Of a stretch of 64,000 bases of DNA, positions 4,417 through 40,490 are shown one piece after another. This DNA comes from a virus, in IMG/VR virus record IMGVR_UViG_3300042923_000524, positions 73,948 to 137,947 of that record; one strand, written 5' to 3'. The position numbers and the translations under genes were made by a program. Every line of letters begins with the position of its first letter. Position 1 is the stretch's first letter. Below the pieces are notes generated by a model. The model saw only the letters and a list, made by a program, of their open reading frames with translations, had not been told where the DNA came from and did no database searches.

Positions 4417-5805
4417 ATGGCAAACCCATTAGCAAAAACAAATTTGAAATCTAAATTAACTAAAGAGGATATTCTAAATCAGAAAAAATATATAAAAGCA
4501 AAAAACGAATTCAAAGAAAAATTCTACAGATTAATGTTTGAGTTAGGTTTGTACAATAAATTCAATAAAACTTATTTCTTACAGATAATGAATGAAACTA
4601 ATTATGGATTTTATGCTCAGTTGTATCTTGTAGATGGTCTTTCGTTTAAACAACTTCAACAAAAAATAGGTGAATTACAGGAGGGATTATGTTGTATTTG
4701 GATAATGCAGACTAAACAATTTGAGAATTATGCTTCAGTAAAGATAGTTACTCAACCTTTAGATGAAAACTTACCATTTGAAAATCCAAAGATTAAACCA
4801 CATCAAATGTATCTAGGTATGAGTTTTTCAATGAAACCTATAATCATAGACGTTGTGTTAAACTGCATGATGCTCTGTGGAGGTGCTACAAACAAAGGAA
4901 AAACTAGATGGATATATTGTGTATTACTTAGTTGGATTTTAGGATGTAAACCTTCAGAAGTTGAATTATATATTTCAGATATTGCAAAGGATGAATACGT
5001 ACTATTTAAGAATGTTAAACATGTTAAGTGTTATGCCAATGAATTGGAACAATTATACAATATGGTACATGAATTAAAACGTAAGTTTGAAGAAAGAAAA
5101 GTATTAATTAGTAAATATAGAGAGACAGGTGAAGCGACTAATATATGGGAATACAATCTAATTAGTAAAAACAAATTATCATATGTTTATTATGTTATAG
5201 ATGAATTATCAGTGTTAATGCCTGATAAAACTGACAGTGAAGATGAAAAAGACATGAAAGGCGAAATACTAGCTATTTCAAAAATGCTAGAAAAGACCGC
5301 TAGAGCATTAGGTATATATGTATTATGTGCGACACAAAAAACTACTAAAGAAGAAATGCCAAGTATTATTAAAAATATGTCAGCCGTAAGAGTAAGTTTC
5401 GGAGCGAATGATGCAGTATCTTCAGAAGTTATTATGGGAGACTCCAGTGCAGTAGGGTTGCAACAGAGATATGCTGTCTACTCTTTAAATGGCGGTGAGA
5501 AGAAAGATTATTTGTTTAGTCCTTACCTAACCACAGATATGTTAAAAATGTTACTAGAGCCGTATAAAACAAATAAAACAGAATTAAACAAACCTAATCC
5601 AATAAAAGAAATACCAACTATTGAAACTCTAGATTTACCGAAACAAATGATTCCTTATAATCAAAATTCAAATTATACACTTCAGCCTATTATATGGAAA
5701 TTAGATGCAAAGTTTAGACCATATAAAAAGCAGGATGTGGAAATTGTAGAAATGCCTAAACCACTATTTCATAATAATGGAGATGATGATTGCATTGATT
5801 ACTGA
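4417..5805 (+). CDS. FtsK/SpoIIIE-domain ATPase
   Basis: Walker A GGATNKGKT, Walker B YYVIDELS, ARALGIYVLCATQK. Confidence 0.9.
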   Translation: MANPLAKTNLKSKLTKEDILNQKKYIKAKNEFKEKFYRLMFELGLYNKFNKTYFLQIMNETNYGFYAQLYLVDGLSFKQLQQKIGELQEGLCCIWIMQTKQFENYASVKIVTQPLDENLPFENPKIKPHQMYLGMSFSMKPIIIDVVLNCMMLCGGATNKGKTRWIYCVLLSWILGCKPSEVELYISDIAKDEYVLFKNVKHVKCYANELEQLYNMVHELKRKFEERKVLISKYRETGEATNIWEYNLISKNKLSYVYYVIDELSVLMPDKTDSEDEKDMKGEILAISKMLEKTARALGIYVLCATQKTTKEEMPSIIKNMSAVRVSFGANDAVSSEVIMGDSSAVGLQQRYAVYSLNGGEKKDYLFSPYLTTDMLKMLLEPYKTNKTELNKPNPIKEIPTIETLDLPKQMIPYNQNSNYTLQPIIWKLDAKFRPYKKQDVEIVEMPKPLFHNNGDDDCIDY

Positions 5806-9799: not shown

Positions 9800-11690
9800 T
9801 TGATTTTATAATTTTATATTAGTTATTTAATCATAACATGGATATACAGAATGTCAATAACAAATATAAAAGTGTACTTAAAAAATATGGTTTTAAATAT
9901 AGTGAATTTAAAGTGATTTTAAGACATTGAGATGATAAGGGGTGTTTTGGTATTGGGAATGGGTAAAGTTTTGTTATAGATTAAATTGGAATTCGGAGAG
10001 GGGATTTGGAAGATATATCTTTGGTAGGATTTATTATTAGTTTTGATTATGTAAGAAATATATGCATAGTGGAGTGCATGATAGATACATATGCATTGTA
10101 GACTGCATAATTAAAGAAGGTATTAAGTCAATTATATTTAGTTTTAAGACATTATTTATTTTAGTGGTGTATTTATATTATGTGAGTGGGAAGTTTTATT
10201 AGGGATTATTATATTAATTGGAGAAGGGATATCGTAATGGGAGAATTGGGTGGGAATTTGGTTATCGGTTTGTTGGGTGGTATGGTTTGGATTATTTGGG
10301 TTAAGTGTTGGAATTGCTCTGTTTGATGTTTTGGTATTGGGTTTGTTTACAGAATGTAGTCGGATTTATTGTGTAATTTCAATGGGTATAGGGTATTGTG
10401 GGTATTTTTTAATATTATTATTGTAAATACATGCCCCATTATTGGTAGAGATTGTAAGTTGTAGACGATAGTTTTGTCGATGTGGGATGGGTGGATTTTT
10501 GATTTTGTTTTGTAAAATTATACATTCGATTTCGTATTTTAGGTTGGGTGTGTTTGTTGATGTACTCATGTCCCCATCTGCTAAATGATAATTATTATTA
10601 ATGTAAACTATGCCCTACCTTATGAAGCTGCTTTATTGACCAATAGCAATAAATACCTTTCAACCATTGATATTACTATGTTTAAAGGTATTTATTACAT
10701 TGTAAAAACATATCCTATAATGATTATTATGTTGTATGTTATGCATTATGTAAGCTAATAAAGGGAATAATAGTACTATAGAAGGTTGTTTTACTCTGGT
10801 TTATTGGATGCTCTGAATGGTTACATATAATTGCAGAATATTGCATAGTTATAATGTAAAGTTCGCTTTACATAACAGCGGTTGTTACGTTGAAGTATTA
10901 GGTTAGTTACTTAACTAATTAACCACTGTATTAATACAATAATACAATATCAAATACATGCAAAATAATTTGCACTATAGCAAATATATTTGCACTATAA
11001 TTATATCATTACAATTAATCATCTATTGTCAACTAACTAAAACTACAAGTTAACAATTAAATCACTAACCTAATAATCTAATAGTATTGTTAACTACAAT
11101 CAAACAAAAGGTTAACAATCAATCATACAATAACCAATACAACCATATACATTAACCATAACTATATTATACATTAATTAATACTACTACACATAGTAAT
11201 CAATACTACATAATTGTATATAAATTACAAAACAATTCAAACTGCATCAAATACAACCTAATACATTATATCACATATTAAACTAATACAATATCATACA
11301 GTACCTATAAACATACTATGCTACACACTAATATTACATATCCTTTATACATCCACTGCATAACCAATCATACAATAACTAATATAAAACTCCACTCCAT
11401 CCAATACCCTTCAAACGCTCCAAAATGCCTTTAAACGAATTAAACCCTTTTAGCATACACTAACACTATTCTCCAAAAACAATAGCTTTCCTTATATTGC
11501 AATGCTTACAACATATACCATCATAAACCAGTAATAAGCTAATAAAATGCATAAAATAAATACATAAACTAATACCATTATTAAAACTCTATTATATAAT
11601 ATATAAAAAATATATTTACAAATACTAATATAAAACTATTGCAAATTAAAATAATAACTATATAATAGTATATAGAATCAATTATATAAG
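9800..11690. other. long non-coding region with G/T-rich to A/C-rich strand switch (origin or genome-end candidate)
   Basis: no credible ORF; G-rich to about 10560, C-rich from about 10920; IRs at 10648-10696 and 10854-10873. Confidence 0.6.
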
Positions 11691-19348: not shown

Positions 19349-19350
19349 AT

Positions 19351-19419
19351 CTCGACTATGCGAGTATAAACAGACTTTAAGCATAGAGCGTTAACAGGTT
19401 TAACAGCCTGTTAGGTAGT
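19351..19419 (+). ncRNA. pistol self-cleaving ribozyme
   Basis: P1 ctcg/cgag, pseudoknot ctatg/catag, UAUAAACAG linker, P2 act/agt, UUAAGC, GCG, P3 ttaacagg/cctgttag, GU cleavage dinucleotide. Confidence 0.85.
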
Positions 19420-19778
19420 AATAAATAATAAATTAATAGGAGTGATTTATCAATGCCAAGTAAAACAGTAAGAGAAACGGAATATAATAAAACAATCCAA
19501 TATAAAGACGGACAAATGACATATTGTATCAACTATAGAAAAGAATTTCATAAATCATTTATAAATGGTTTTAGATGGGTAGAATGTTAATTCAATAAAA
19601 TCCAAATTTGGTCATCATGTAAAAATTTAGGAGGTGCGTATAATGTGTAGAATCTGTGGAGCAGAAACAAAAGAAACTATTTGTAAAGAGTGTCAAAAAG
19701 AATTAATCAAAGAAAACTATAACAAAACTTTTATTAAAATATCAAAATAAAAATATAAAATTATAGGAGAGTGTAAAA

Positions 19779-19991: not shown

Positions 19992-20363
19992 AAATGAAAG
20001 ATTTATTTGAAAAATTAGAATATGCAAAAAAGGCGGTATTAAGAACATTAGAAAAAGAAAGTTGTTCAGTTGATTTTCATGGTTTATCATATTGGGCAAA
20101 TGAAGTAGAGCGTTTACGCAATGAAATTAAAAAGATATTATAATATTAAGAGAAGCCTGTAAAAAGGCTTTTTCTTTTATCTAATATCCAGACCAAATAG
20201 ATGTTTTATTGTCATATAATGTCGATAAGTTTTATAATAATTAATATAAAATTGAGCAAAATAATGTTGACAGATTAAAAACACGTATGTTATAATTAGT
20301 TATACCAATTAATTAGAAATTCAATAATAACAAATAACAAATAACAAATATAAAATATAAGGA

Positions 20364-21044
20364 GTGGAAATTATGAAAAAAACATTATATTTTGAAGGTG
20401 CAGGATGGTCGGGAGCAGATATAAGCCAAAGAACAATAGGAAATTGCAGAATAAGAACAGGATTCACAAACAACGAAGGAAGAAAAATCTATTTAGAAAT
20501 TACTGGTTATGAAAAATCAGCCAATGATAAAAAGATTGACAGATATTCAGAATATCAAGTTGGAGAAGCAATTGGATTTGTAGATTATTGTTTTTATATT
20601 GATACAGAATCAAAAGACCCTTGCAACGAATGCAGAATAAAAGACATAGAACATAATGCAAAATTTGCTTATACAAAAGAAGGTATAACAGAGTTTATTA
20701 ATAAAAATCTGAAGTGCAGCTTTGAAACTATCGAAGTATTGCCAGATTTAGGAGGTTACAGAGTACACGGAGATAACAAAACATATAGCATGATGGAAGA
20801 CTACAATCATAATTCAGAACTAATTAAGACAAGAGAAGAAGTTTACAATCATTTTTACGGACTTGAAAAATCAGAAGGTAAACAATATCCAAACTTCTCT
20901 TTATGGGTAGATGATAAAGACATTCACTTATTACACTTGTTAAGACATTTTAATGGTTATAATAAGCATTGGTCAATTCATACCGATATAGAAAACTGGA
21001 AAGAAACAATAACAGAAACCAAGTTGGGAAAATATGCCTGTTAG
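20364..21044 (+). CDS. hypothetical phage protein
   Basis: 226-aa ORF, promoter, RBS. Confidence 0.75.
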   Translation: MEIMKKTLYFEGAGWSGADISQRTIGNCRIRTGFTNNEGRKIYLEITGYEKSANDKKIDRYSEYQVGEAIGFVDYCFYIDTESKDPCNECRIKDIEHNAKFAYTKEGITEFINKNLKCSFETIEVLPDLGGYRVHGDNKTYSMMEDYNHNSELIKTREEVYNHFYGLEKSEGKQYPNFSLWVDDKDIHLLHLLRHFNGYNKHWSIHTDIENWKETITETKLGKYAC

Positions 21045-21149
21045 TTAATTATTTACTGTTAGAGTACACTATAACAAATATAAAACTATAGTGTACTCCA
21101 TAGAGTAAATAAAACTCTAAAAAATATAATAACAGGAGCGTGTTTATAT

Positions 21150-21551
21150 ATGATAAAAACATTTAAGAAAGAATTAAATAGCCACGATTACAATGAAATA
21201 AGAATAATTAATTTAGAATCTGGAGAATTTACACACTATTTTCAGGATAAAAATATAGGCTTTATATTTTCAGATTATACAACAACAGTATTTGAAATGG
21301 GCTATAAATCAGTTAAAGAATGCATTAAAGAACTAAGAAGCCGAGGTTTATTAGGTCAAGAAGTTGATTACAAAGAACAAAAAGAATCTGAAAGAATCGG
21401 TTATATTAAATTAGGCGTAGAGCGCATTAAAAGAGCAGGAAGAGTAAATACAAATGATTTTGAAGATGTAATAACAAAGCTATCAAAATATGGTATGGGA
21501 TTCTGTGATGCTCAAAATGTAATAACAGAAACATATTTATATCAAGCATAG
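21150..21551 (+). CDS. hypothetical protein
   Basis: RBS. Confidence 0.7.
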   Translation: MIKTFKKELNSHDYNEIRIINLESGEFTHYFQDKNIGFIFSDYTTTVFEMGYKSVKECIKELRSRGLLGQEVDYKEQKESERIGYIKLGVERIKRAGRVNTNDFEDVITKLSKYGMGFCDAQNVITETYLYQA

Positions 21552-21553
21552 CA

Positions 21554-21625
21554 ACAGGTCACAGCCTGTATAAATAGTGCTTTAAGCTGTGAGCGTGTCA
21601 AGGTATAACAGCCTTGACGATAGCA
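21554..21625 (+). ncRNA. pistol ribozyme (second copy, AU at cleavage junction)
   Basis: P1 acagg/cctgt, pseudoknot tcacag/ctgtga, AUAAAUAG, P2 tgct/agca, UUAAGC, GCG, P3 tgtcaagg/ccttgacg. Confidence 0.8.
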
Positions 21626-21652
21626 AAATAAAGGTTTAGGAGGTCGTTAAAC

Positions 21653-21961
21653 ATGAGTTATAATAAGGCTATGAAGCATTCAAACAATCATAGAAAAGAT
21701 AAATACTATCAACCAGTTTTAGGTATGCCCTTTGAAGGTTTAAAAGAAGGAGAGCATATAGAAAGCTATCAAAGTATAGCAGAAAGAACAGCAGAATCAT
21801 ATCATGTTAAAGCTTTTAACGAAATAAATAATACATGGGAAAGAATGTCTAAGGATTTTTTAACAGAATCAGAAGCGATTGACGAAAGTTTTATATTTGA
21901 CGAAAAGGGTTATAGAACTAGAATATATAGTGATAAAGATATGAGAGTTGCAGGATGGTAA
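21653..21961 (+). CDS. hypothetical protein
   Basis: RBS. Confidence 0.7.
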   Translation: MSYNKAMKHSNNHRKDKYYQPVLGMPFEGLKEGEHIESYQSIAERTAESYHVKAFNEINNTWERMSKDFLTESEAIDESFIFDEKGYRTRIYSDKDMRVAGW

Positions 21962-22454
21962 AAACACTATAACAGCCGAGGTATTTTAAACCATGAAGTT
22001 TTAAAAAGTTACTATAACAGTCGACACAAAATAGTTGACGAAGTTTTCTTATAACAGAAAGCACTTTTTACTTCATGGATTTTAACTATAACAGCAAGTT
22101 TAAAATGGTTGACCGACTTTTGTAAATAATATATAAAAGATTGGTATAAAAGTTACTAAGACTTGACACAATATAACTAAATACAAATATAAAATTTATT
22201 TTAAAAAAGCATTGACAAAACTTTTCTATGTATGGTAAAATAAGTATAACAGGTAAACGAAAAATAAATATATTGGAGGGTTTGAATATGGAATTAACTA
22301 AACAAGAAATACAATCAAGGATTGAGAAAATAAGCAAACTTAAAGAAACTGAACAAGATATTCAAAAATTAAAAATCATCAATCAAGCAGTAAAAGATTT
22401 AAGTAGTTTATTATAAAAAGCCAATCAAAGACGTATTCAGTTGAAATTTAAAAT

Positions 22455-22796
22455 ATGAAAGGTGGAAATAAAATGAATTATATTTTTGAAAGTATCAAAA
22501 GAGAATTAGGAGAAGATTCAATTGGTTGGAGAGAAATATCAAAATTATTAGATGCTCAACCTAAAAAAGAAGAAGTTGGTTTTAAAACAGAATTTAAAGG
22601 TGAATGCTATATAATTCAAGATGCAACAGGAAACTTTGTTTATGGCGAATGTGAAGGTGAAGGAATGGATTTTGAACAGGCACAAAAGTTTAATGATTTT
22701 AATGGAGCTTTAAGATTTGTAAATCACAATGAAGAATACGACAGTGACCATTGGAAAATATTTAAAGTAAAGATTGATTATGAAATATTAGTATAA
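22455..22796 (+). CDS. hypothetical protein
   Basis: likely start MNYIF. Confidence 0.7.
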   Translation: MKGGNKMNYIFESIKRELGEDSIGWREISKLLDAQPKKEEVGFKTEFKGECYIIQDATGNFVYGECEGEGMDFEQAQKFNDFNGALRFVNHNEEYDSDHWKIFKVKIDYEILV

Positions 22797-22808
22797 CAGC
22801 ATCCCTTC

Positions 22809-22870
22809 CCTGTCTGATGAGAGCTTGATAGTAACAAGCCGAATCCTGCTATAACAGAGCAGGAAACAGG
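22809..22870 (+). ncRNA. hammerhead-like ribozyme variant
   Basis: stem I cctgt/acagg, CUGAUGA, stem II gcttg/caagc, GAA-U, stem III cctgct/agcagg; U15.1-A16.1 instead of A-U. Confidence 0.6.
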
Positions 22871-23110
22871 AAACTGAAATAAATATTTAGGAGTGAAATA
22901 TAAATGGAAAAGAACATGATAGAAATTAATAAAACAACTCGTATATCAATTGACGATGATGGTATAATATCAATTCATCAATTAGATTGGAAAGGTAAAG
23001 ACTATACAACTATTCATCTTAGCAAAGAGGCATTAAAGCAAATTACAGAGATAGTTGAAAAGGTATAACAGTAAAATCCAGACAAAACAGTAGTTTTATC
23101 AAAATATAAA

Positions 23111-23296
23111 TTGAAAGGATGGAATAAAATGAATGATACAAAATTAGAAAATATGATATTAACAACTAAACTATGTTTAGTAGAGGCAGAAACAAAAAGC
23201 CAAGATTTTAAAGACGGTGCAATATATATGTCAAAAAGTATTTTTAGTTCGTTGGGTATACCAGATAATGTTATAGAAAAATTTATAAAAGCATAA
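23111..23296 (+). CDS. hypothetical protein
   Basis: RBS. Confidence 0.55.
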   Translation: MKGWNKMNDTKLENMILTTKLCLVEAETKSQDFKDGAIYMSKSIFSSLGIPDNVIEKFIKA

Positions 23297-23351
23297 CAGA
23301 CAACGAAAGATAGATTTGGTCAAAATAAATAGATGAAAGAAGGAAAGAAAA

Positions 23352-23795
23352 ATGAAATTTGCAAAGTATTATAATGTAACAAACAAAATGAACGAAATGA
23401 TTGAAAAGGGTGATTTATTTTCTTATGAAAAAGGTTTTTACAAAGGATTATATATCTGTAAAGATACTCATGATTTCTGGATTAGTAGAGTATTAGAAGG
23501 GTATAACAGCGAGTTTGAGCAAGAAGATGGAAAATGGTTGGTAGAGCGTAATAAAATAGATAAATATGACTTCTGTGAATTTTTAAAAGAAAAGAAAAAT
23601 GATGATTCTATAATAACAGATAGACGTACTAGAGATTATTATATAGATGAATGTTTCCAAGATGAAGTAATAATGGAAACACTAATACTTATGGATGATG
23701 ATAAAGGTCTTGAAGGATGGGATAACTATGAATGTGATAGTTATGAAGAGGCAGTTGAAGCCATTGATGGAGGCTACGGAATATTAACGACGTAG
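23352..23795 (+). CDS. acidic hypothetical protein
   Basis: 147-aa ORF, RBS. Confidence 0.7.
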   Translation: MKFAKYYNVTNKMNEMIEKGDLFSYEKGFYKGLYICKDTHDFWISRVLEGYNSEFEQEDGKWLVERNKIDKYDFCEFLKEKKNDDSIITDRRTRDYYIDECFQDEVIMETLILMDDDKGLEGWDNYECDSYEEAVEAIDGGYGILTT

Positions 23796-24100
23796 ATACA
23801 ATTATATTGTGTTAGGGTGCATTATAACAGAGTGCATCCAATAGAATATAAATATAAAATTAAGGAGGATTTAAAATGAATATAGTAAAAGAATTAGAGC
23901 AAATTCTACAACAGCCAAACTTTATGGGCAATGACAAATTAGGTTGTAATCTAGCAGTAAATCAAATACTAGATAAAATTGAAGAGCTAGGACTTGAAAT
24001 AGTAGAAAAGAAATAATATAAATATCCCAATAAAATCAACATTCTGAGCCAATTTAACGCTCTATAACAGATTGTTATAACAGAAAGGAGTCAATAGACC

Positions 24101-24331
24101 ATGAGAACATTAAAAGAGATTTATCCACCTACAAATGAATTTAATATTATATATGCTGAGTTAATCAAAGAGGATAATAATGAAGATTATATAAAAGTTA
24201 ACATACAGTATCAAGACGAATCCACAGAACAAATTAAACTTTTAATGCATGATGATTTATTAGAAGATATCAACAGATTATCAGATTTTGAACTTTGTTA
24301 TGATATAACAGAAAATGTCTATTGGGACTAG
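24101..24331 (+). CDS. hypothetical protein
   Basis: RBS. Confidence 0.6.
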   Translation: MRTLKEIYPPTNEFNIIYAELIKEDNNEDYIKVNIQYQDESTEQIKLLMHDDLLEDINRLSDFELCYDITENVYWD

Positions 24332-24796
24332 GGAGGTATAACAGCCATGCAATCAGCGAACCAGAGACAAACTGATTTTGAAGTACTAAAGACAACTAAT
24401 ATAAAATTAAACTATAACAGAAACCCAAATGAATTCAGCAAAACTATGAATATCACAATAACAGCAGCAACATTTATTATGATGGTTTTTCTAGCAATAA
24501 AGTTTCTATCATAAAATACATATAACAGTCACAAATACATATAACAGCGAACTAAGGAGGGGTCACAGTGAATGCAATTAGAATAATAGGTATAGATACA
24601 TTTGAATACTCACAAAGTAAGATAACAGCCGACATAACAACATACTGGAAAGAGTTGTATTGGAAGAATAACAGCTATTTGACGAGATACAGAACAGTTT
24701 ATGAAAACACATTATAAACACAAATATAAAACTATTGACACGGAGTAAACATATGTTAAGATTAAATTAATCAGAATAATCCAATATATTTAAGGA

Positions 24797-28989: not shown

Positions 28990-29238
28990 ATGTTAAAATT
29001 AAAAGAATTAAAACAAACTTGTAGTTGTTGTCCTAGTCAATGGGAAGGAACAACTAAAGAAGGCAAGTATGTTTATATTAGATGTGATAATAATGAACTT
29101 GAAGTCGAAACAGCAAAGAACGAAGAAGATTGGTATAAAGGTAAATTTAAAGTGGTATTTGTTGATTATAACAGTGATTATGGTGATGTAATGGATACTA
29201 ATGAAATGTTGTCTCGTACAGGAATTCAACTCATATAG
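28990..29238 (+). CDS. hypothetical phage protein
   Basis: TCSCCPSQWEG...YVYIR; RBS. Confidence 0.65.
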   Translation: MLKLKELKQTCSCCPSQWEGTTKEGKYVYIRCDNNELEVETAKNEEDWYKGKFKVVFVDYNSDYGDVMDTNEMLSRTGIQLI

Positions 29239-33020: not shown

Positions 33021-33689
33021 GTGGTAATTGAAATGACAACATGCATTCAAAACATTAATAGTCACACTACATACGATAAACCAATAAACACACTAATCAA
33101 CGCAGCACAAAAATTATTAGAGGTACGGAAAGGTGATTTGATATTTGTAGACTTTGACCAACTAATAAAAAGTGGTAGAGACCATAGTATACAATCGAAA
33201 CCTAGACCAGCGGTAGTTTTAAGCAATAACGTTGGAAACAAGTTTTCACCTACTATTTGGGTGGCAACATTAACTTCTAATCTTAACAAAAATAAACTAC
33301 CAACACATGTAAAAGTATCTGAAGAAACAGGACTTAGATTTGATTCGTTGGTTTTAGTAGAACAGGTATTCACAATTGACAAAAAACTTATATTATCAAA
33401 AGTGGGGAAATGTTCAGCACATATAATGGAGCAAATTGACACAGCAGTTAAAATTCAAGCAGGTACAATTGATTTAGAGTATATAGAAGATACAGTTAAT
33501 TGGATTAATAAAGTAGAGTGCGAAGCTCGAATAAATGGGTTTGACCCAGAGGATGCAAGATTACACACTAGACTAGTTAAGGAATTGCAATCTTATTGTA
33601 ATCAATATGGATATGATTATACTAAGGTATTAAAAGAAAAAACATTTATAAAAGTCTCCGTGGACAATAGAAAACAAAATGCAATGTAA
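33021..33689 (+). CDS. MazF/PemK (NdoA-like) endoribonuclease toxin with N- and C-terminal extensions
   Basis: KGDLIFVDF, SKPRPAVVLSNNVGNKFSPT, TLTS, DSLVLVEQVFTIDK; catalytic R and T present. Confidence 0.88.
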   Translation: MVIEMTTCIQNINSHTTYDKPINTLINAAQKLLEVRKGDLIFVDFDQLIKSGRDHSIQSKPRPAVVLSNNVGNKFSPTIWVATLTSNLNKNKLPTHVKVSEETGLRFDSLVLVEQVFTIDKKLILSKVGKCSAHIMEQIDTAVKIQAGTIDLEYIEDTVNWINKVECEARINGFDPEDARLHTRLVKELQSYCNQYGYDYTKVLKEKTFIKVSVDNRKQNAM

Positions 33690-33698
33690 AATATAAAA

Positions 33699-34358
33699 AT
33701 GGAGGACGGCATGATGAACAATAATTTTGTAGGGGAACAGAATGAGGTTAGAACTTTTATAGATAAAAGTAAATTTAATGAAGCAATTTTTAAATGTAAA
33801 ACAGTATTAGAAACATTAAACGATAATTATATCGAAGATAATCACAACAAATGGTTTTTTAATCTAAGAATTGCAATATGTTATAGAAAAAAAGGTCAAT
33901 TTAAAAAAGCATTAAATTATGTATTTGAAAGTAAAAACTACACAAATGATTTAAAAGAGCATATGGAATGTAATTGGGTTTTAGGAAATTGTTATTACTC
34001 TATGAAGTTATATAAAAAAGCTACACTATTTTTTAGACAATGCAGTGACTACTTTACAAACAACAACATGGAAGATGAACGTATTCATATGGATTTCAAC
34101 ATTGCAAAAATTGAAAATGACGATGTAAAAATTAATAGACTTTTGATTGAAGCTTATAATATGGTAAATATCGATGCCGATTCTCTAAGTAATGCAGAGT
34201 GGTTTTTCAACAACGCTTATGAAACCCTCTGCGAAATATACATAGATAGAAATCAATTAGAAATTTTTGAAGAAACTATTGTTAAAATTAAAGATAGAAA
34301 TATTGTTGATGATTTACGAAATAGAATGCAAGTGGTGAATATCACTAACATTTTATAA
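33699..34358 (+). CDS. TPR-like peptide receptor (RRNPP-like, no HTH)
   Basis: LRIAICYRKKGQFKKALNY, VLGNCYYSMKLYKKATLFF repeats; directly precedes a propeptide. Confidence 0.7.
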   Translation: MEDGMMNNNFVGEQNEVRTFIDKSKFNEAIFKCKTVLETLNDNYIEDNHNKWFFNLRIAICYRKKGQFKKALNYVFESKNYTNDLKEHMECNWVLGNCYYSMKLYKKATLFFRQCSDYFTNNNMEDERIHMDFNIAKIENDDVKINRLLIEAYNMVNIDADSLSNAEWFFNNAYETLCEIYIDRNQLEIFEETIVKIKDRNIVDDLRNRMQVVNITNIL

Positions 34359-34380
34359 TATAAAACAAGGAGGAAAAAGA

Positions 34381-34527
34381 ATGAAAAAAATTGCATTGTT
34401 TCTCACAACAGTTGCGGTACTTGCGATGTTGGTTGGAGGTATGGTTTTTGCTTCTGACGTTACAGACCCAAAAGTAGCTAAACCAGTGGTAGTGAGTCCT
34501 AATTCTGACGTTACAGACCCAAGATAA
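34381..34527 (+). CDS. 48-aa secreted signalling propeptide (AimP/Phr-like; not in ORF track)
   Basis: MKKIALFLTTVAVLAMLVGGMVFA-SDVTDPK-VAKPVVVSPN-SDVTDPR; AGGAGG RBS; 20-bp DNA repeat at 34452 and 34503. Confidence 0.85.
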   Translation: MKKIALFLTTVAVLAMLVGGMVFASDVTDPKVAKPVVVSPNSDVTDPR

Positions 34528-34539
34528 TTAATAAAACAA

Positions 34540-34558
34540 GAGGGGTGAAATGCCCCTC
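34540..34558 (+). terminator. hairpin after propeptide
   Basis: gaggggtgaaatgcccctc. Confidence 0.6.
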
Positions 34559-34595
34559 AAACAAAAAACTACAATAAAAATGAGGTGACAACATT

Positions 34596-34946
34596 ATGAT
34601 AGACCAAAACAAAGTAAAAAATCTATGTGAAAAATATAAAATCAACTACAAAATACATCCTAATAATATCTATATGGAAACTCCATTAAATACTTGGATA
34701 TGTGAAGATAAGGATACTCACTATCGCCTTAAACATAAAAATAAAGGTGTCTGTAAACATACGATGCATATGCACGATAGAAAATTTGAAAATGTAAATG
34801 AAGTATTAGAATATATACATACTCATGACACAAAGACAATATTTGACCGTAGAAGAAGTAATGAGAGAAGATTAGATAGGTTATTTGAATCTATATCAAT
34901 ACATAAAAAATCAAATAAGAAAATAAATAAATCAATTAGTATATAA
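34596..34946 (+). CDS. hypothetical protein
   Basis: RBS; His-rich. Confidence 0.65.
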   Translation: MIDQNKVKNLCEKYKINYKIHPNNIYMETPLNTWICEDKDTHYRLKHKNKGVCKHTMHMHDRKFENVNEVLEYIHTHDTKTIFDRRRSNERRLDRLFESISIHKKSNKKINKSISI

Positions 34947-35078
34947 ATAGATTAACATAAATAATGAATATAAATATTTTTCATGATTCACACATACATA
35001 TCAGTATAATTACTTGACACCAAGGATATAATTATATTAAGATATAAATAAGAATGAATATAAAAGGATGTGTGAGTT

Positions 35079-36389
35079 ATGAAAATAGGAAAAGATAGAG
35101 ATTTACTAGAGAAAGAATTAGCAAAAATATTCGTAAAGTATAATTTAGATAATAATGTAATCAATAAAATTAAAGAAGAATTTATATCAAGAGGGGTATC
35201 TTCAGGAGAATTCTTGTCTATTATAGATGGCAAAATTCAGATTGAAACAATCCCTCTTAATATGCTTTGTCTTTTAACAGAGTTGTTTTATAAAGAAACT
35301 ACAGAGCAAAATATAAAACCAGAAACTTATTTTACTGAACAAGAAATTAACACAGCTAAGAATTTTAGACGAGAGTCAGAAGAACAATCTAAATATCCAT
35401 TAGTATTTGAAAATGTCATGAAGATTGGTGATGACCACTATGTAACATATAAAACAGCTCAAGAAGTTGCTGGTTACTATGCAAAGAATTTAATTGTTTA
35501 TAACAAACAAACTCAAAGAAATGCAAAGTACAGTGAGTATCAAGATAAAATTGTTGAAATGATAAGTATAAATAAATCTTCTATTTCTGATATTGCAAAA
35601 GATATTGTTGAGGGCAGACAAATTACAAACTTTATCACTTTTAATATTCTTCAAAATGGCGAAGAGAATTTTGAATATGATGCTAAAAATAAAACTTTAA
35701 CTGTATTTGAAGGTGAGATTGATATACTTGACGGTTTTCATAGGTCAATGGGAATTCTCTCAGCAGTACAGAAAGAGCCTAATGTAAAATATATCACTGG
35801 AATTAATATAGTGAATTGGGATATTGAAAAATCAAGAAGATTTATTGTACAGGAAGATAAGAGAAATAAGATTAATGCTTCTCATGTAAAATCACTTAAT
35901 CCAGATAGATATGAAAACATGATTATTAAAAAACTAAATGAGAGTAGTTCAAGTGATTTAAAAGGCAAAATTACTACAGATAATTTATTTATAAGAAAAC
36001 ATAAAGCTTTAACAACATATGATGTTATTAATAATACTATTCAAAAAGAATATAAAGACATTAAAACCAATAGAGATGCTTCTTTAATTGCTGAATGGTT
36101 AATTGAATTCTTTAATGAATTAATTGGTTTGTATCCAACTGAGTTTTTAACTGAAATTGAATCTACTAAGGAAACTTCATTTATTAACAATGAGAATATG
36201 TTCGCAGGTTATATTTCACTTTCAAAAGAATTACAGAATGTTAGCAATTGGAGACAAAAACTACAGGAAGTGATGAGTAAAATTGATTTTAGCGTTAATA
36301 ATTCTAAGTGGGAAAGTCTTAAATCTGCAACAGAATTAAACAAGAGATTATTAAAGAATATATCTAATTATTTTAGAGAGATTGTTTAG
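35079..36389 (+). CDS. SPbeta YopQ-like DGQHR/ParB-fold protein
   Basis: IDILDGFHR motif; size and position directly upstream of a YopR-like gene. Confidence 0.65.
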   Translation: MKIGKDRDLLEKELAKIFVKYNLDNNVINKIKEEFISRGVSSGEFLSIIDGKIQIETIPLNMLCLLTELFYKETTEQNIKPETYFTEQEINTAKNFRRESEEQSKYPLVFENVMKIGDDHYVTYKTAQEVAGYYAKNLIVYNKQTQRNAKYSEYQDKIVEMISINKSSISDIAKDIVEGRQITNFITFNILQNGEENFEYDAKNKTLTVFEGEIDILDGFHRSMGILSAVQKEPNVKYITGINIVNWDIEKSRRFIVQEDKRNKINASHVKSLNPDRYENMIIKKLNESSSSDLKGKITTDNLFIRKHKALTTYDVINNTIQKEYKDIKTNRDASLIAEWLIEFFNELIGLYPTEFLTEIESTKETSFINNENMFAGYISLSKELQNVSNWRQKLQEVMSKIDFSVNNSKWESLKSATELNKRLLKNISNYFREIV

Positions 36390-36418
36390 TTAAAAAATTA
36401 AGAAAGGTGTGAATATAA

Positions 36419-37384
36419 TTGAAACATTTTATTATGTATAATCCAGAATTAAAAAATGTTTATCTTAATACTATTGACAACGAAGGAACTAGAGAAAATA
36501 TTGGATATACTTTTCAAAAGGCTAGAATACTAGAAGATGAAAAAGGAAAAGATATATGTCATTTTAATTTTGATGAATTAGGTGAATTATGGAGTAGCTT
36601 CAGAGCAAAAAGTTTTGCTGCCATTACTACTAAAGTTAGTATTATAGTTAAGTATATTGACTTTTGTATTGATAAAGGATTGGCTGATGTAAACTACAAT
36701 TGGGCAAAGATGTACTTTAATGAAGATGGATTAAGACCATATGTAAGCAAAGTTGCTATAGGTAATAAAATAATTGACAAAGAAACTTTAGAAGATATAA
36801 TTGATTTTTGTGCTAACGCTCAAGATGCTGTAATCTTTGCATTATTATTTGAAGGTGTAAAGGGTAGACCAATACAAGAAAATGCCTTTGAAGAAGTTAG
36901 GAATCTTAGAATGGTTGATTGTAATACTGATACTAATGATATTATACTAAGACAAGATGATGGTAAAACAAGAGTTATTCAAATATCTGAAAGAACTATG
37001 AATTTAATAGTAGATGCTTATAATCAACAAACGTATTTAAGAAAAAATGGCGAATCAACCGCAAAACTTAAAGAGATAGAAATGATTGATACAGGTTATG
37101 TTTTAAAATTAGGTGATATAGGCAAGAATTCCAATTCGAGTGAAGATAGAATAAGTCATCAAGTTTTATTTAGAAGACTAAAGAATATTGCAAAAGCATA
37201 TGGAAATAGTTTTTTAACACCTACTAATATTTACATGAGTGGAATGGTTGACTATGCTCAAAGACTGCAAACTGAAAAAGGTGTAGAATTAGACAATAAT
37301 GATTATATTCATATATGTGAGAAATATGGAATAGACCCTAAAAGATGGTATAAGATAAAAGTGGAGATTAAGCAGTATCTATAA
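36419..37384 (+). CDS. SPbeta YopR/MrpR-like master repressor (inactive tyrosine-recombinase fold)
   Basis: MYNPELKNVYL, GKDICHF, LLFEGVKG, YLRKNG, FLTPTNIYMSG; lacks the RHR catalytic set. Confidence 0.8.
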   Translation: MKHFIMYNPELKNVYLNTIDNEGTRENIGYTFQKARILEDEKGKDICHFNFDELGELWSSFRAKSFAAITTKVSIIVKYIDFCIDKGLADVNYNWAKMYFNEDGLRPYVSKVAIGNKIIDKETLEDIIDFCANAQDAVIFALLFEGVKGRPIQENAFEEVRNLRMVDCNTDTNDIILRQDDGKTRVIQISERTMNLIVDAYNQQTYLRKNGESTAKLKEIEMIDTGYVLKLGDIGKNSNSSEDRISHQVLFRRLKNIAKAYGNSFLTPTNIYMSGMVDYAQRLQTEKGVELDNNDYIHICEKYGIDPKRWYKIKVEIKQYL

Positions 37385-39176: not shown

Positions 39177-40490
39177 ATGAATAAATGTATAAAAATAACA
39201 ATAAAAAATTGTATAAATATAGATAAATATAGACAGGTATTAAGGGATTTAAGATATCAAACTTGGTTAGCAAGTAATAAAGCTATGACTAATTATTATA
39301 CTTTTGCATTAGAGAACATGGAATATAAAAACATAAATGGAATCAACATAAATGAGAAAGAGAGATATGGTAAAAGTTATGATGCATGGATACAAAATAG
39401 AATGAATGAGATTATGACCATGCATCAAAGTGGGAATGTAGCTCAAACAGCACAATTTGTCGCTAAGAGATTTAAAGACGATATAAAAAAAGGTATGTTT
39501 AAAGGCAAGATATCAATATCTAATTTTAAACAAGATATCCCACTTATTATACATAATAAAAACTATAAAATCATACAGGGTGATAAGGGATATAAAATTG
39601 AATGTAGTTTATTTAATAGAGAATACCAAAAAGAAAATATTATTAAAAAAGCTGAATTTCAAATTGATAAGATTGATAATAATTGTAAAAGTGTATTAAA
39701 TAGAATTATATCTGGTGAATATAAGCAGGGTTCTATGCAAATTACAGAAGATAAAAAAGGTAAATGGTATTTTATAATTAGTTATAGTTTTGAAGCATCC
39801 AAACAAACTTTTGACCAAAATAGAATATTAGGCATAGATTTAGGTATAACTAAAGTAGCTACAATGCAAATATTTGATAAAACCATTGAAGAGTGGGATA
39901 GATTATCTTGGAAAGAATGTATGATGGATGGTAGAGAGTTAATACATTATAGACAAAAGATAGAAGCGAGAAAAAAACAATTACAAATAGCTAGTAAGTG
40001 GTGTGGAGAAGGTAGAGTTGGTCATGGTACTAAAACAAGAATGAAACCTTTAGATAAAATAGGAAGTGTGGTAAGTAATTTTAAAGATACATATAATCAT
40101 AAAATAAGCAGATATATAATAGATTTTGCTATTAAACATAATTGCGGAATAATTCAAATGGAAGATTTAAGTGGATTTAGTGAACAACAAACAGAAAGTT
40201 TATTAAAGAATTGGAGTTATTTTGATTTACAAACTAAGATAAAATATAAAGCCGAAGAAAAGGGAGTAGAGGTTATATTTATTAATCCTCAATATACAAG
40301 TAAAAGATGTAGTAGGTGTGGTTGTATAGACACACGAAATAGAGATTGTGAAAATAATCAATCCAAGTTTGAATGTGTAACTTGTGGTCATAAAGAAAAT
40401 GCAGATATAAATGCAGCGAAAAATATTAGTATGCCTGATATTGAAGAAATTATTGGTGAATACATAAAATATGGTTTAAAAGTAAGTTAA
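39177..40490 (+). CDS. cas12f1: Cas12f1 (type V-F, TnpB-related) RNA-guided nuclease
   Basis: RuvC ILGIDLG, IQMEDLS, NADINAA; CSRC...CVTC; VGHGTKTRMKP and IISGEYK segments like AsCas12f1; adjacent array and tracrRNA. Confidence 0.88.
   Translation: MNKCIKITIKNCINIDKYRQVLRDLRYQTWLASNKAMTNYYTFALENMEYKNINGININEKERYGKSYDAWIQNRMNEIMTMHQSGNVAQTAQFVAKRFKDDIKKGMFKGKISISNFKQDIPLIIHNKNYKIIQGDKGYKIECSLFNREYQKENIIKKAEFQIDKIDNNCKSVLNRIISGEYKQGSMQITEDKKGKWYFIISYSFEASKQTFDQNRILGIDLGITKVATMQIFDKTIEEWDRLSWKECMMDGRELIHYRQKIEARKKQLQIASKWCGEGRVGHGTKTRMKPLDKIGSVVSNFKDTYNHKISRYIIDFAIKHNCGIIQMEDLSGFSEQQTESLLKNWSYFDLQTKIKYKAEEKGVEVIFINPQYTSKRCSRCGCIDTRNRDCENNQSKFECVTCGHKENADINAAKNISMPDIEEIIGEYIKYGLKVS

Follow-up and report, generated by a model that had tools for sequence, protein, structure and literature searches.

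A single-strand array of the heptamer ATAACAG fills one predicted transcription unit in an SPbeta-like phage and may tag its early transcripts

The window analysed here, a stretch of 64,000 nucleotides, is the last 64 kb (G000:C1:73948-137947) of a 137,947-bp virus record (IMGVR_UViG_3300042923_000524, labelled G000 in the following), and the subject of this report is a short word, ATAACAG, that is repeated on one strand through a block of small genes. ATAACAG occurs 32 times in the window, and 27 of these copies lie on the + strand at 20685-24674, i.e., within 3,990 bp and at a density of 6.8 words per kb (positions are those of the window unless stated otherwise). An earlier note, made from the letters alone, had listed 24 copies in 21522-24674 together with copies at 20685, 21009 and 21129 and had seen none on the reverse strand; every one of them was located on the + strand, and the - strand carries no copy between 15741 and 42407. 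Counted over the whole genome, the word is found 29 times on the + strand (27 in the array, 2 elsewhere) and 13 times on the - strand. The elements of the region are the following:

20150..20173, + strand: predicted terminator-like hairpin that ends the preceding unit, directly upstream of the array promoters
20209-20238, + strand: second promoter-like site, predicted, sigma-A-type
20267..20296, + strand: predicted sigma-A-type promoter TTGACA-18-TATAAT with a TG extension, 12/12 consensus, opening the array unit
20327..20347, + strand: three tandem ATAACAA variants in the leader, ~25-45 nt past the predicted start site
20685..24674, + strand: array of 27 exact ATAACAG words, from a word search
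21969..22094, + strand: intergenic control region of 270 bp with four words, of which three stand 37 nt apart and are kept as a triple in the relative G001
22212..22252, + strand: predicted internal sigma-A-type promoter TTGACA-18-TAAAAT, whose predicted start site lies inside the word at 22246
24735..24762, + strand: next predicted sigma-A-type promoter, just beyond the array end
10872..10878, + strand: lone copy of the word in a leader, right after a TATAAT box; the homologous place is kept in G001

Past the promoter at 24735 no + strand word follows until one copy at 29168, and the array fills one predicted transcription unit, from its promoter to the next. It passes through 13 small open reading frames (ORFs), for none of which, including that of a 226-aa protein, a meaningful match was obtained in Pfam, PHROGs and Atlas searches. 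As stated in the earlier note, copies occur both in intergenic DNA (14) and inside ORFs (10), while the remaining three overlap the stop of the upstream ORF; in these three (ORFs ending at 22796, 23068 and 23296) the internal TAA of the word itself serves as stop codon. The 10 intra-ORF copies use both stop-free frames. Spacing between words is uneven, ranging from 13 to 550 bp through the genes, and the distance from a word to the start codon varies from 1 to more than 400 nt.

At the rate observed outside the array, a stretch of this size would be expected to hold ~0.2 copies, and order 0-2 Markov models for which the array served as its own training set expect 0.9-2.3 copies versus the 27 observed. 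The enrichment claimed in the earlier note thus holds up. In an array-wide logo only [T]ATAACAG[A/C] is conserved. Pooling of 128 copies from four phages gave the same picture, with T (63%) or A and almost never G as the preceding base, A or C as the following base, and an enrichment over the outside rate of 52-fold for ATAACAG and ~5-fold for the variant ATAACAA. No partner element upstream or downstream (-35, -10 or spacer) appears in the logos of G000 or of the four pooled phages, and the conserved site comprises 7-9 positions only. A literature search found no paper that mentions the word.

Arrays in other uncultured records were sought in two steps, a scan of viral contigs for three copies close together and a count of the word across whole records; among the matches listed in these pattern scans, most were coding tandem repeats (Ile-Thr-Gly fibres), which were discarded. 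The identical word forms polar arrays in at least three other uncultured records, namely G001 (27 copies in 8.8 kb), G002 (52 copies in 15 kb vs. 2 on the opposite strand) and G006 (24 copies in 10 kb), and also in the cultured Psychrobacillus phage Perkons, where 27 + strand copies lie 5.4-22.6 kb from the left physical end of the linear genome. The Perkons stretch includes ArdA, a DnaN gene, antirepressors and a MazF gene, and no clear promoter or terminator was found at its edges. All five arrays, which are 4-17 kb long, sit on the coding strand, and conservation in relatives, proposed as a check in the earlier note, was thus found. The proteins of the array phages are only 25-57% identical, their backgrounds are of Bacillales and Clostridia type, and hardly any gene inside one array has a homologue in the array of another phage. 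Those array genes of the relatives that can be recognised are anti-defence or accessory genes (LPD29 domain, Dam-like methylase with DUF4942, GmrSD N-domain, ArdA) as well as antirepressors. Between G000 and G001 some words occupy homologous places and others are shifted by a few tens of bases.

The array is absent from SPbeta, from phage LIBA6276 and from the relatives G004 and G005. G003 lacks it as well and has a weaker TAAACAG bias instead: around the 226-aa gene of this record (L001, 6516-19209) TAAACAG occurs 22 times on the + strand and once on the - strand, perhaps as a variant word or through a codon effect. A search for relatives via a 147-aa ORF found none, those reached via the 226-aa ORF (L001-L009) mostly lack the word, and MazF-based locus searches of viral contigs and genomes gave no further arrays.

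Some further observations were made on these records and scans. Inside the 15-kb array of G002 (L129, 7505-7658) there are two adjacent tRNA genes with UUG and UUU in their anticodon loops. The reverse complement CTGTTAT occurs in Perkons (MT325768) at positions 121 and 136668, inside the 264-bp direct terminal repeat, possibly by chance. Another polar heptamer, CGACTTT, is found 9-14 times on one strand per 10-20 kb (~1 expected) at ~10 loci among L221-L245, which are viral contigs of ~50% GC near MazF homologues and belong to an unrelated phage group. GAGAATA / GGAGAAT occurs 17-24 times on one strand vs. ~6 expected in viral contigs L185-L201 and is probably linked to the Shine-Dalgarno (SD) sequence.

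The 226-aa protein, encoded by the first gene of the array operon, represents the sole well-conserved family among the arrays and allows the word to be followed within an alignment. In array phages each member carries 2-3 words, mostly at different alignment columns, where they bring replacements of otherwise conserved residues (ILK>ITE, NNE>NNS, GKQ>YNS), while the orthologues of non-array phages carry 0-1 words. Since the words stand at differing columns with residue changes, and are shifted between G000 and G001, selection acts on whether and how densely the word occurs and not on the proteins. The array is thus real, polar and co-extensive with a predicted transcription unit, and its word is kept while genes and site positions turn over; as judged from these alignments, the word is a selected, orientation-specific signal at the nucleotide level that is imposed on the codons.

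Several copies fall into structured RNAs, as the earlier note had pointed out for the terminal loops of a pistol P3, a hammerhead stem III and a stem at 23802:

21554..21625, + strand: pistol ribozyme (Rfam, 59.9 bits), P3 terminal loop with UAUAACAG
19350-19420, + strand: second pistol ribozyme (Rfam, 64.1 bits), outside the array, with UUUAACAG in the P3 loop
22809..22870, + strand: hammerhead-like three-way junction in the predicted fold of 22797-22880, with a 7-bp stem capped by a 7-nt AUAACAG loop
23802..23851, + strand: very stable hairpin between cistrons, with AUAACAG as its 7-nt loop, predicted fold within 23796-23860, z = -5.5

The pistol loop and the 23802 stem stand as described. 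The third structure keeps its AUAACAG loop on a three-way junction, but its naming as a hammerhead found no backing, as an Rfam search gave no hammerhead match at E<=1 for 22809-22870. Both pistols are intercistronic, and their stems differ, while their P3 loops share U(U/A)UAACAG.

The 137,947-bp record has ends that share a 127-bp overlap and therefore represents a circular assembly. Its genes include those for a DnaE-type polymerase, a RecD-like helicase, a ribonucleotide reductase, a large serine recombinase, a YomG-like tail protein and a tape-measure protein, and further for MazF-like, TPR, DndB-domain (YopQ-like) and MrpR-domain proteins and a homologue of the SPbeta RNA polymerase YonO; from this gene set G000 is a large SPbeta-like temperate phage. 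Judged by DnaE, its closest cultured relatives are the Clostridioides difficile phages LIBA6276 and LIBA2945 (132-134 kb, 57% identity), and the only match at the DNA level among cultured phages is one 162-nt stretch in Perkons. Two regions of the window outside the array are relevant in what follows:

4417-5805: FtsK/SpoIIIE-domain protein, 462 aa, near the beginning of the early arm
33021-37384: MazF-like gene (33021-33689) with a ~70-aa C-terminal extension, followed by genes for TPR, DndB-domain (YopQ-like) and MrpR-domain proteins

No MazE-like gene was recognised by Pfam beside the MazF-like gene in 33021-37384. A TnpB/Cas12f-like protein (Cas12f1-like TNB and OrfB_IS605 domains) is encoded at 39177-40490, and its homologue adjoins MazF in G002. 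Where an array and a YopP/YopQ/MrpR-type module share a record, transcription runs from the array towards the module, which lies downstream.

The reading that we favour, tentatively and at somewhat less than even confidence, is that ATAACAG is a sense-strand tag that is read on the transcript and controls the whole early block, i.e., a class tag at the RNA level. A subset of SPbeta-like temperate phages carries [T/A]ATAACAG[A/C] densely through the early block upstream of the YopP/YopQ/MrpR lysogeny module, and one sequence-specific factor, which may be a host factor, would read it either on the sense transcript or on the non-template strand where this is displaced, and handle the whole block as one class. 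The most likely outcome would be a coordinated cleavage, decay or processing, or a translational silencing, of the early messages. Such an action might resemble that of the T4 endoribonuclease RegB, which recognises GGAG sites in early mRNAs, a 4-nt word that overlaps the SD sequence itself. In both cases early messages have a short word clustered between their cistrons and near SD sequences, and it would mark a temporal class for inactivation or processing; unlike in T4, no RegB-like or other RNase tracks the arrays, and cleavage at ATAACAG is our inference. The stronger version, according to which the heptamer is a transcript-class tag of an undescribed kind, with one conserved factor, possibly from the host, deciding the fate of the block on RNA, we consider possible but doubtful.

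Several features lean towards the transcript, although each is weak or not reproduced everywhere: the match of the array from promoter to promoter, the placement in loops, the position relative to genes, the accessibility of the word and its depletion elsewhere. Of 138 copies, 31 lie 10-49 nt upstream of a start codon preceded by an SD sequence, where 10.6 are expected (~3-fold). The predicted accessibility of the word on sense RNA is 0.197 vs. 0.146 for composition-matched 7-mers (p=0.047), and antisense RNA shows no excess. Outside the array, the sense strand of G000 early genes carries 1-2 copies vs. ~14 expected (P ~1e-5), while late genes carry 9 vs. 8.5, as would be expected if the word came at a cost to early messages that ought to be free of it.

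A number of observations weigh against a tag on RNA. The accessibility signal is marginal, and the sense-strand depletion is weak in G001 (5 vs. 10) and absent in G006. Four words lie upstream of the internal promoter at 22212..22252 and would, on RNA, be relevant only to read-through transcripts. Display in hairpin loops had to be rejected as a general property of the word, as in two further arrays that were checked stems flanked the words no more often than they flanked random positions. Every gene in every array shares one orientation, and orientation therefore cannot separate an RNA from a DNA reading. No RNA-binding protein or RNase was found to co-occur with the arrays, either in a gene-family profile of 5 array vs. 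5 non-array genomes or in a MazF tree. In a search of sequencing runs, the sequence was found in two DNA runs only, both from soil metagenomes, and no RNA run was among them.

The same profile contains no family exclusive to array phages, and the reader would therefore come from the host, or be a phage protein that is either small or quick to evolve, or else a shared protein whose specificity differs subtly. Just one family, a tyrosine-recombinase-like one, is represented in all five array records; it also occurs in array-less phages, and this YopP-like protein was rejected as reader because its members fall into unrelated clades that show no match to the occurrence of the array. The generic idea put forward in the earlier note, a multivalent and oriented landing zone, fits a word that is selected, polar and conserved, whereas its specific candidates found no support. 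The FtsK-like gene is present only in G000 among the four metagenomic array records G000, G001, G002 and G006 (Perkons was not searched), and YopQ/MrpR-type genes occur both with and without arrays. A centromere would be expected to consist of short tandem or palindromic iterons next to par genes, which is not what the irregular words, running for 4-17 kb through genes, represent. Antitermination or an RNA sponge may be a role of the array. No conserved CTGTTAT site was seen that would indicate a small RNA carrying the anti-word. Pairing with the anticodon loop of tRNA-Asn (CUGUUAU loop-like) was set aside as numerology; t6A37 would block such pairing. A resemblance to the rRNA boxA was also set aside, as the Firmicute boxA differs from ATAACAG.

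The main rival, which we regard as unlikely though deserving of serious attention, places the word on DNA: a phage or prophage protein would bind each asymmetric word as a monomer, as at stoperators, and form an orientation-dependent block to RNA polymerase, keeping the early/anti-defence block silent in lysogens or shutting it off after the early phase. The phage is temperate, as its serine recombinase, MrpR-like and YopQ-like genes indicate, a monomeric integrase-fold repressor is already known in the SPbeta phage group, and one word lies on the predicted start site of the internal promoter with four more just upstream. As in cluster A mycobacteriophages (L5 gp71, TipsytheTRex repressor; PMC9283540), one asymmetric word recurs many times in a temperate phage, pointing the way of transcription and lying both between and within genes, which holds for all five array phages, and control would concern a whole block rather than a single promoter. 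However, stoperators are 13 bp long, occur genome-wide at ~20-30 per genome, are read by a two-domain helix-turn-helix immunity repressor and diverge between immunity groups (PMC9283540), whereas ATAACAG measures 7-9 nt and is restricted to one block at 3-7 per kb, a ~10 times higher density; neither a 13-bp site nor such a repressor was found. The word is moreover identical in phages with 25-57% protein identity, while immunity repressor-operator pairs normally diverge, and no DNA-binding gene family tracks the array in the 5 vs. 5 profile or in a recombinase tree. A repeated regulatory element read by a monomeric integrase-fold repressor is indeed present in SPbeta-like phages, namely the SPBRE/MrpR (SroF) system, with a 15-bp motif in SPbeta and a 26-bp box in phi3T at ~10 dispersed promoter regions (PMC10516654; bioRxiv 2025.11.27.690993), but it forms no dense polar array through genes. 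Its boxes of 15-26 bp at dispersed early promoters do not compare with a word of 7-9 nt that is packed into one operon at 6.8 per kb, and the MrpR/SroF repressor, and with it a YopQ-like reader as named in the earlier note, was dropped as a candidate.

Cleavage by the phage's own MazF-like endoribonuclease (33021-33689) we hold to be improbable, although MazF enzymes in general cut single-stranded RNA at words of 3-7 nt, often containing ACA; active MazF would destroy the array operon and thereby tie the shut-off of early genes to a decision of the arbitrium type. G000, G001, G002 and Perkons (the latter inside the array) all encode an intact PemK/MazF domain, the sense-strand depletion in G000 early genes would fit, and host MazF promotes lysogeny in phi3T, possibly by preferential cleavage of lytic transcripts. 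UACAU (MazF/EndoA) sites have been reported to be enriched in SPbeta and phi3T transcripts (bioRxiv 2023.04.27.537455; PMC10769878), a likeness in phage group, in an RNase word within phage transcripts and in the tie to the lysis-lysogeny decision. That enrichment is, however, genome-wide and modest, concerns a 5-mer and a host enzyme, and shows no regional cluster in SPbeta, unlike a 7-mer enriched more than 50-fold in one block. The word was not found to co-evolve with one MazF lineage either: the MazFs of array phages do not form a clade but are scattered among those of array-less genomes and viral contigs, so that they are unlikely to have one 7-nt specificity in common, the relatives G003-G005 have a MazF but no array, ~150 further MazF-neighbourhood loci are likewise without an array, and no MazF was found in the array-bearing G006 record (47% complete). 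A polar DNA word similar to Chi or to the FtsK-orienting polar sequences (KOPS), read by host AddAB/RecBCD or FtsK/SpoIIIE and protecting or orienting the phage DNA, appears quite improbable to us. The known Chi sites of Bacillales, AGCGG and GAAGCGG, are unrelated to ATAACAG. In support of such a role, an exact short polar word is common to phages that differ in gene content and runs through their coding DNA, the Perkons array lies near the left physical end, and terminal co-oriented Chi clusters, likewise accumulated in one region including coding DNA, are known from phages LLS, MD8 and P1 (PMC12315714). Chi, however, is the host's own over-represented word, whereas the 8-mer TATAACAG is not over-represented in 61 Bacilli genomes and amounts mostly to about half its reversed control, in a sample that excludes the actual hosts, even though Perkons infects a Bacillales host; this also speaks against the KOPS-like loading suggested in the earlier note. 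The scarcity of TATAACAG in most of these genomes may only reflect avoidance of the TA dinucleotide. In 61 Clostridia genomes, again without the actual hosts, its ratio to the reversed control ranges from 0.2 to 4, and some genomes have it 2.5-4 times more often than the control; a strong over-representation in the host chromosome was found in neither sample. The density of 3-7 per kb is also far above that of Chi clusters (~1 per kb), the G000 array lies 20 kb away from the likely packaging genes, and the array phages carry their own recombination and replication genes, while Chi-rich lambdoid phages are mostly without Rec modules (PMC12315714). It is very improbable that TATAAC(AG) is a -10-type element for a modified or phage-specific holoenzyme, comparable to TATAAATA of T4 late promoters and giving each gene its own start. 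T often precedes the word, which gives TATAAC, many copies lie upstream of genes, and one G001 copy has TTGAAG 17 nt upstream. Yet the logos contain no -35 or spacing partner, no fixed distance to starts or genes is kept, 40-50% of the copies lie inside ORFs and some inside ribozyme loops, and others abut or follow the SD sequence (ATAACAGGAGG; GGAGGTATAACAGCCATG), where a start 7 nt downstream would drop the ribosome-binding site. A sigma gene was present in only one of four metagenomic array records searched and in none of G000-G002, and promoters for YonO were dropped from consideration, as SPbeta YonO transcribes late genes from a single promoter (PMC5467207). What probability remains after the transcript tag, stoperators, MazF, Chi and promoters belongs to something not yet thought of.

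Whichever factor reads the word, a selection that is strong enough to rewrite codons keeps dozens of exact copies in the first-expressed genes of temperate phages, across phages of different host orders. The finding implies a control step that is missing from current models of SPbeta-like phages, which comprise arbitrium, MrpR/SroF, MazF and YonO. Since Perkons is in culture, the reader can be sought directly, and its identification would show how anti-defence genes are timed or silenced.

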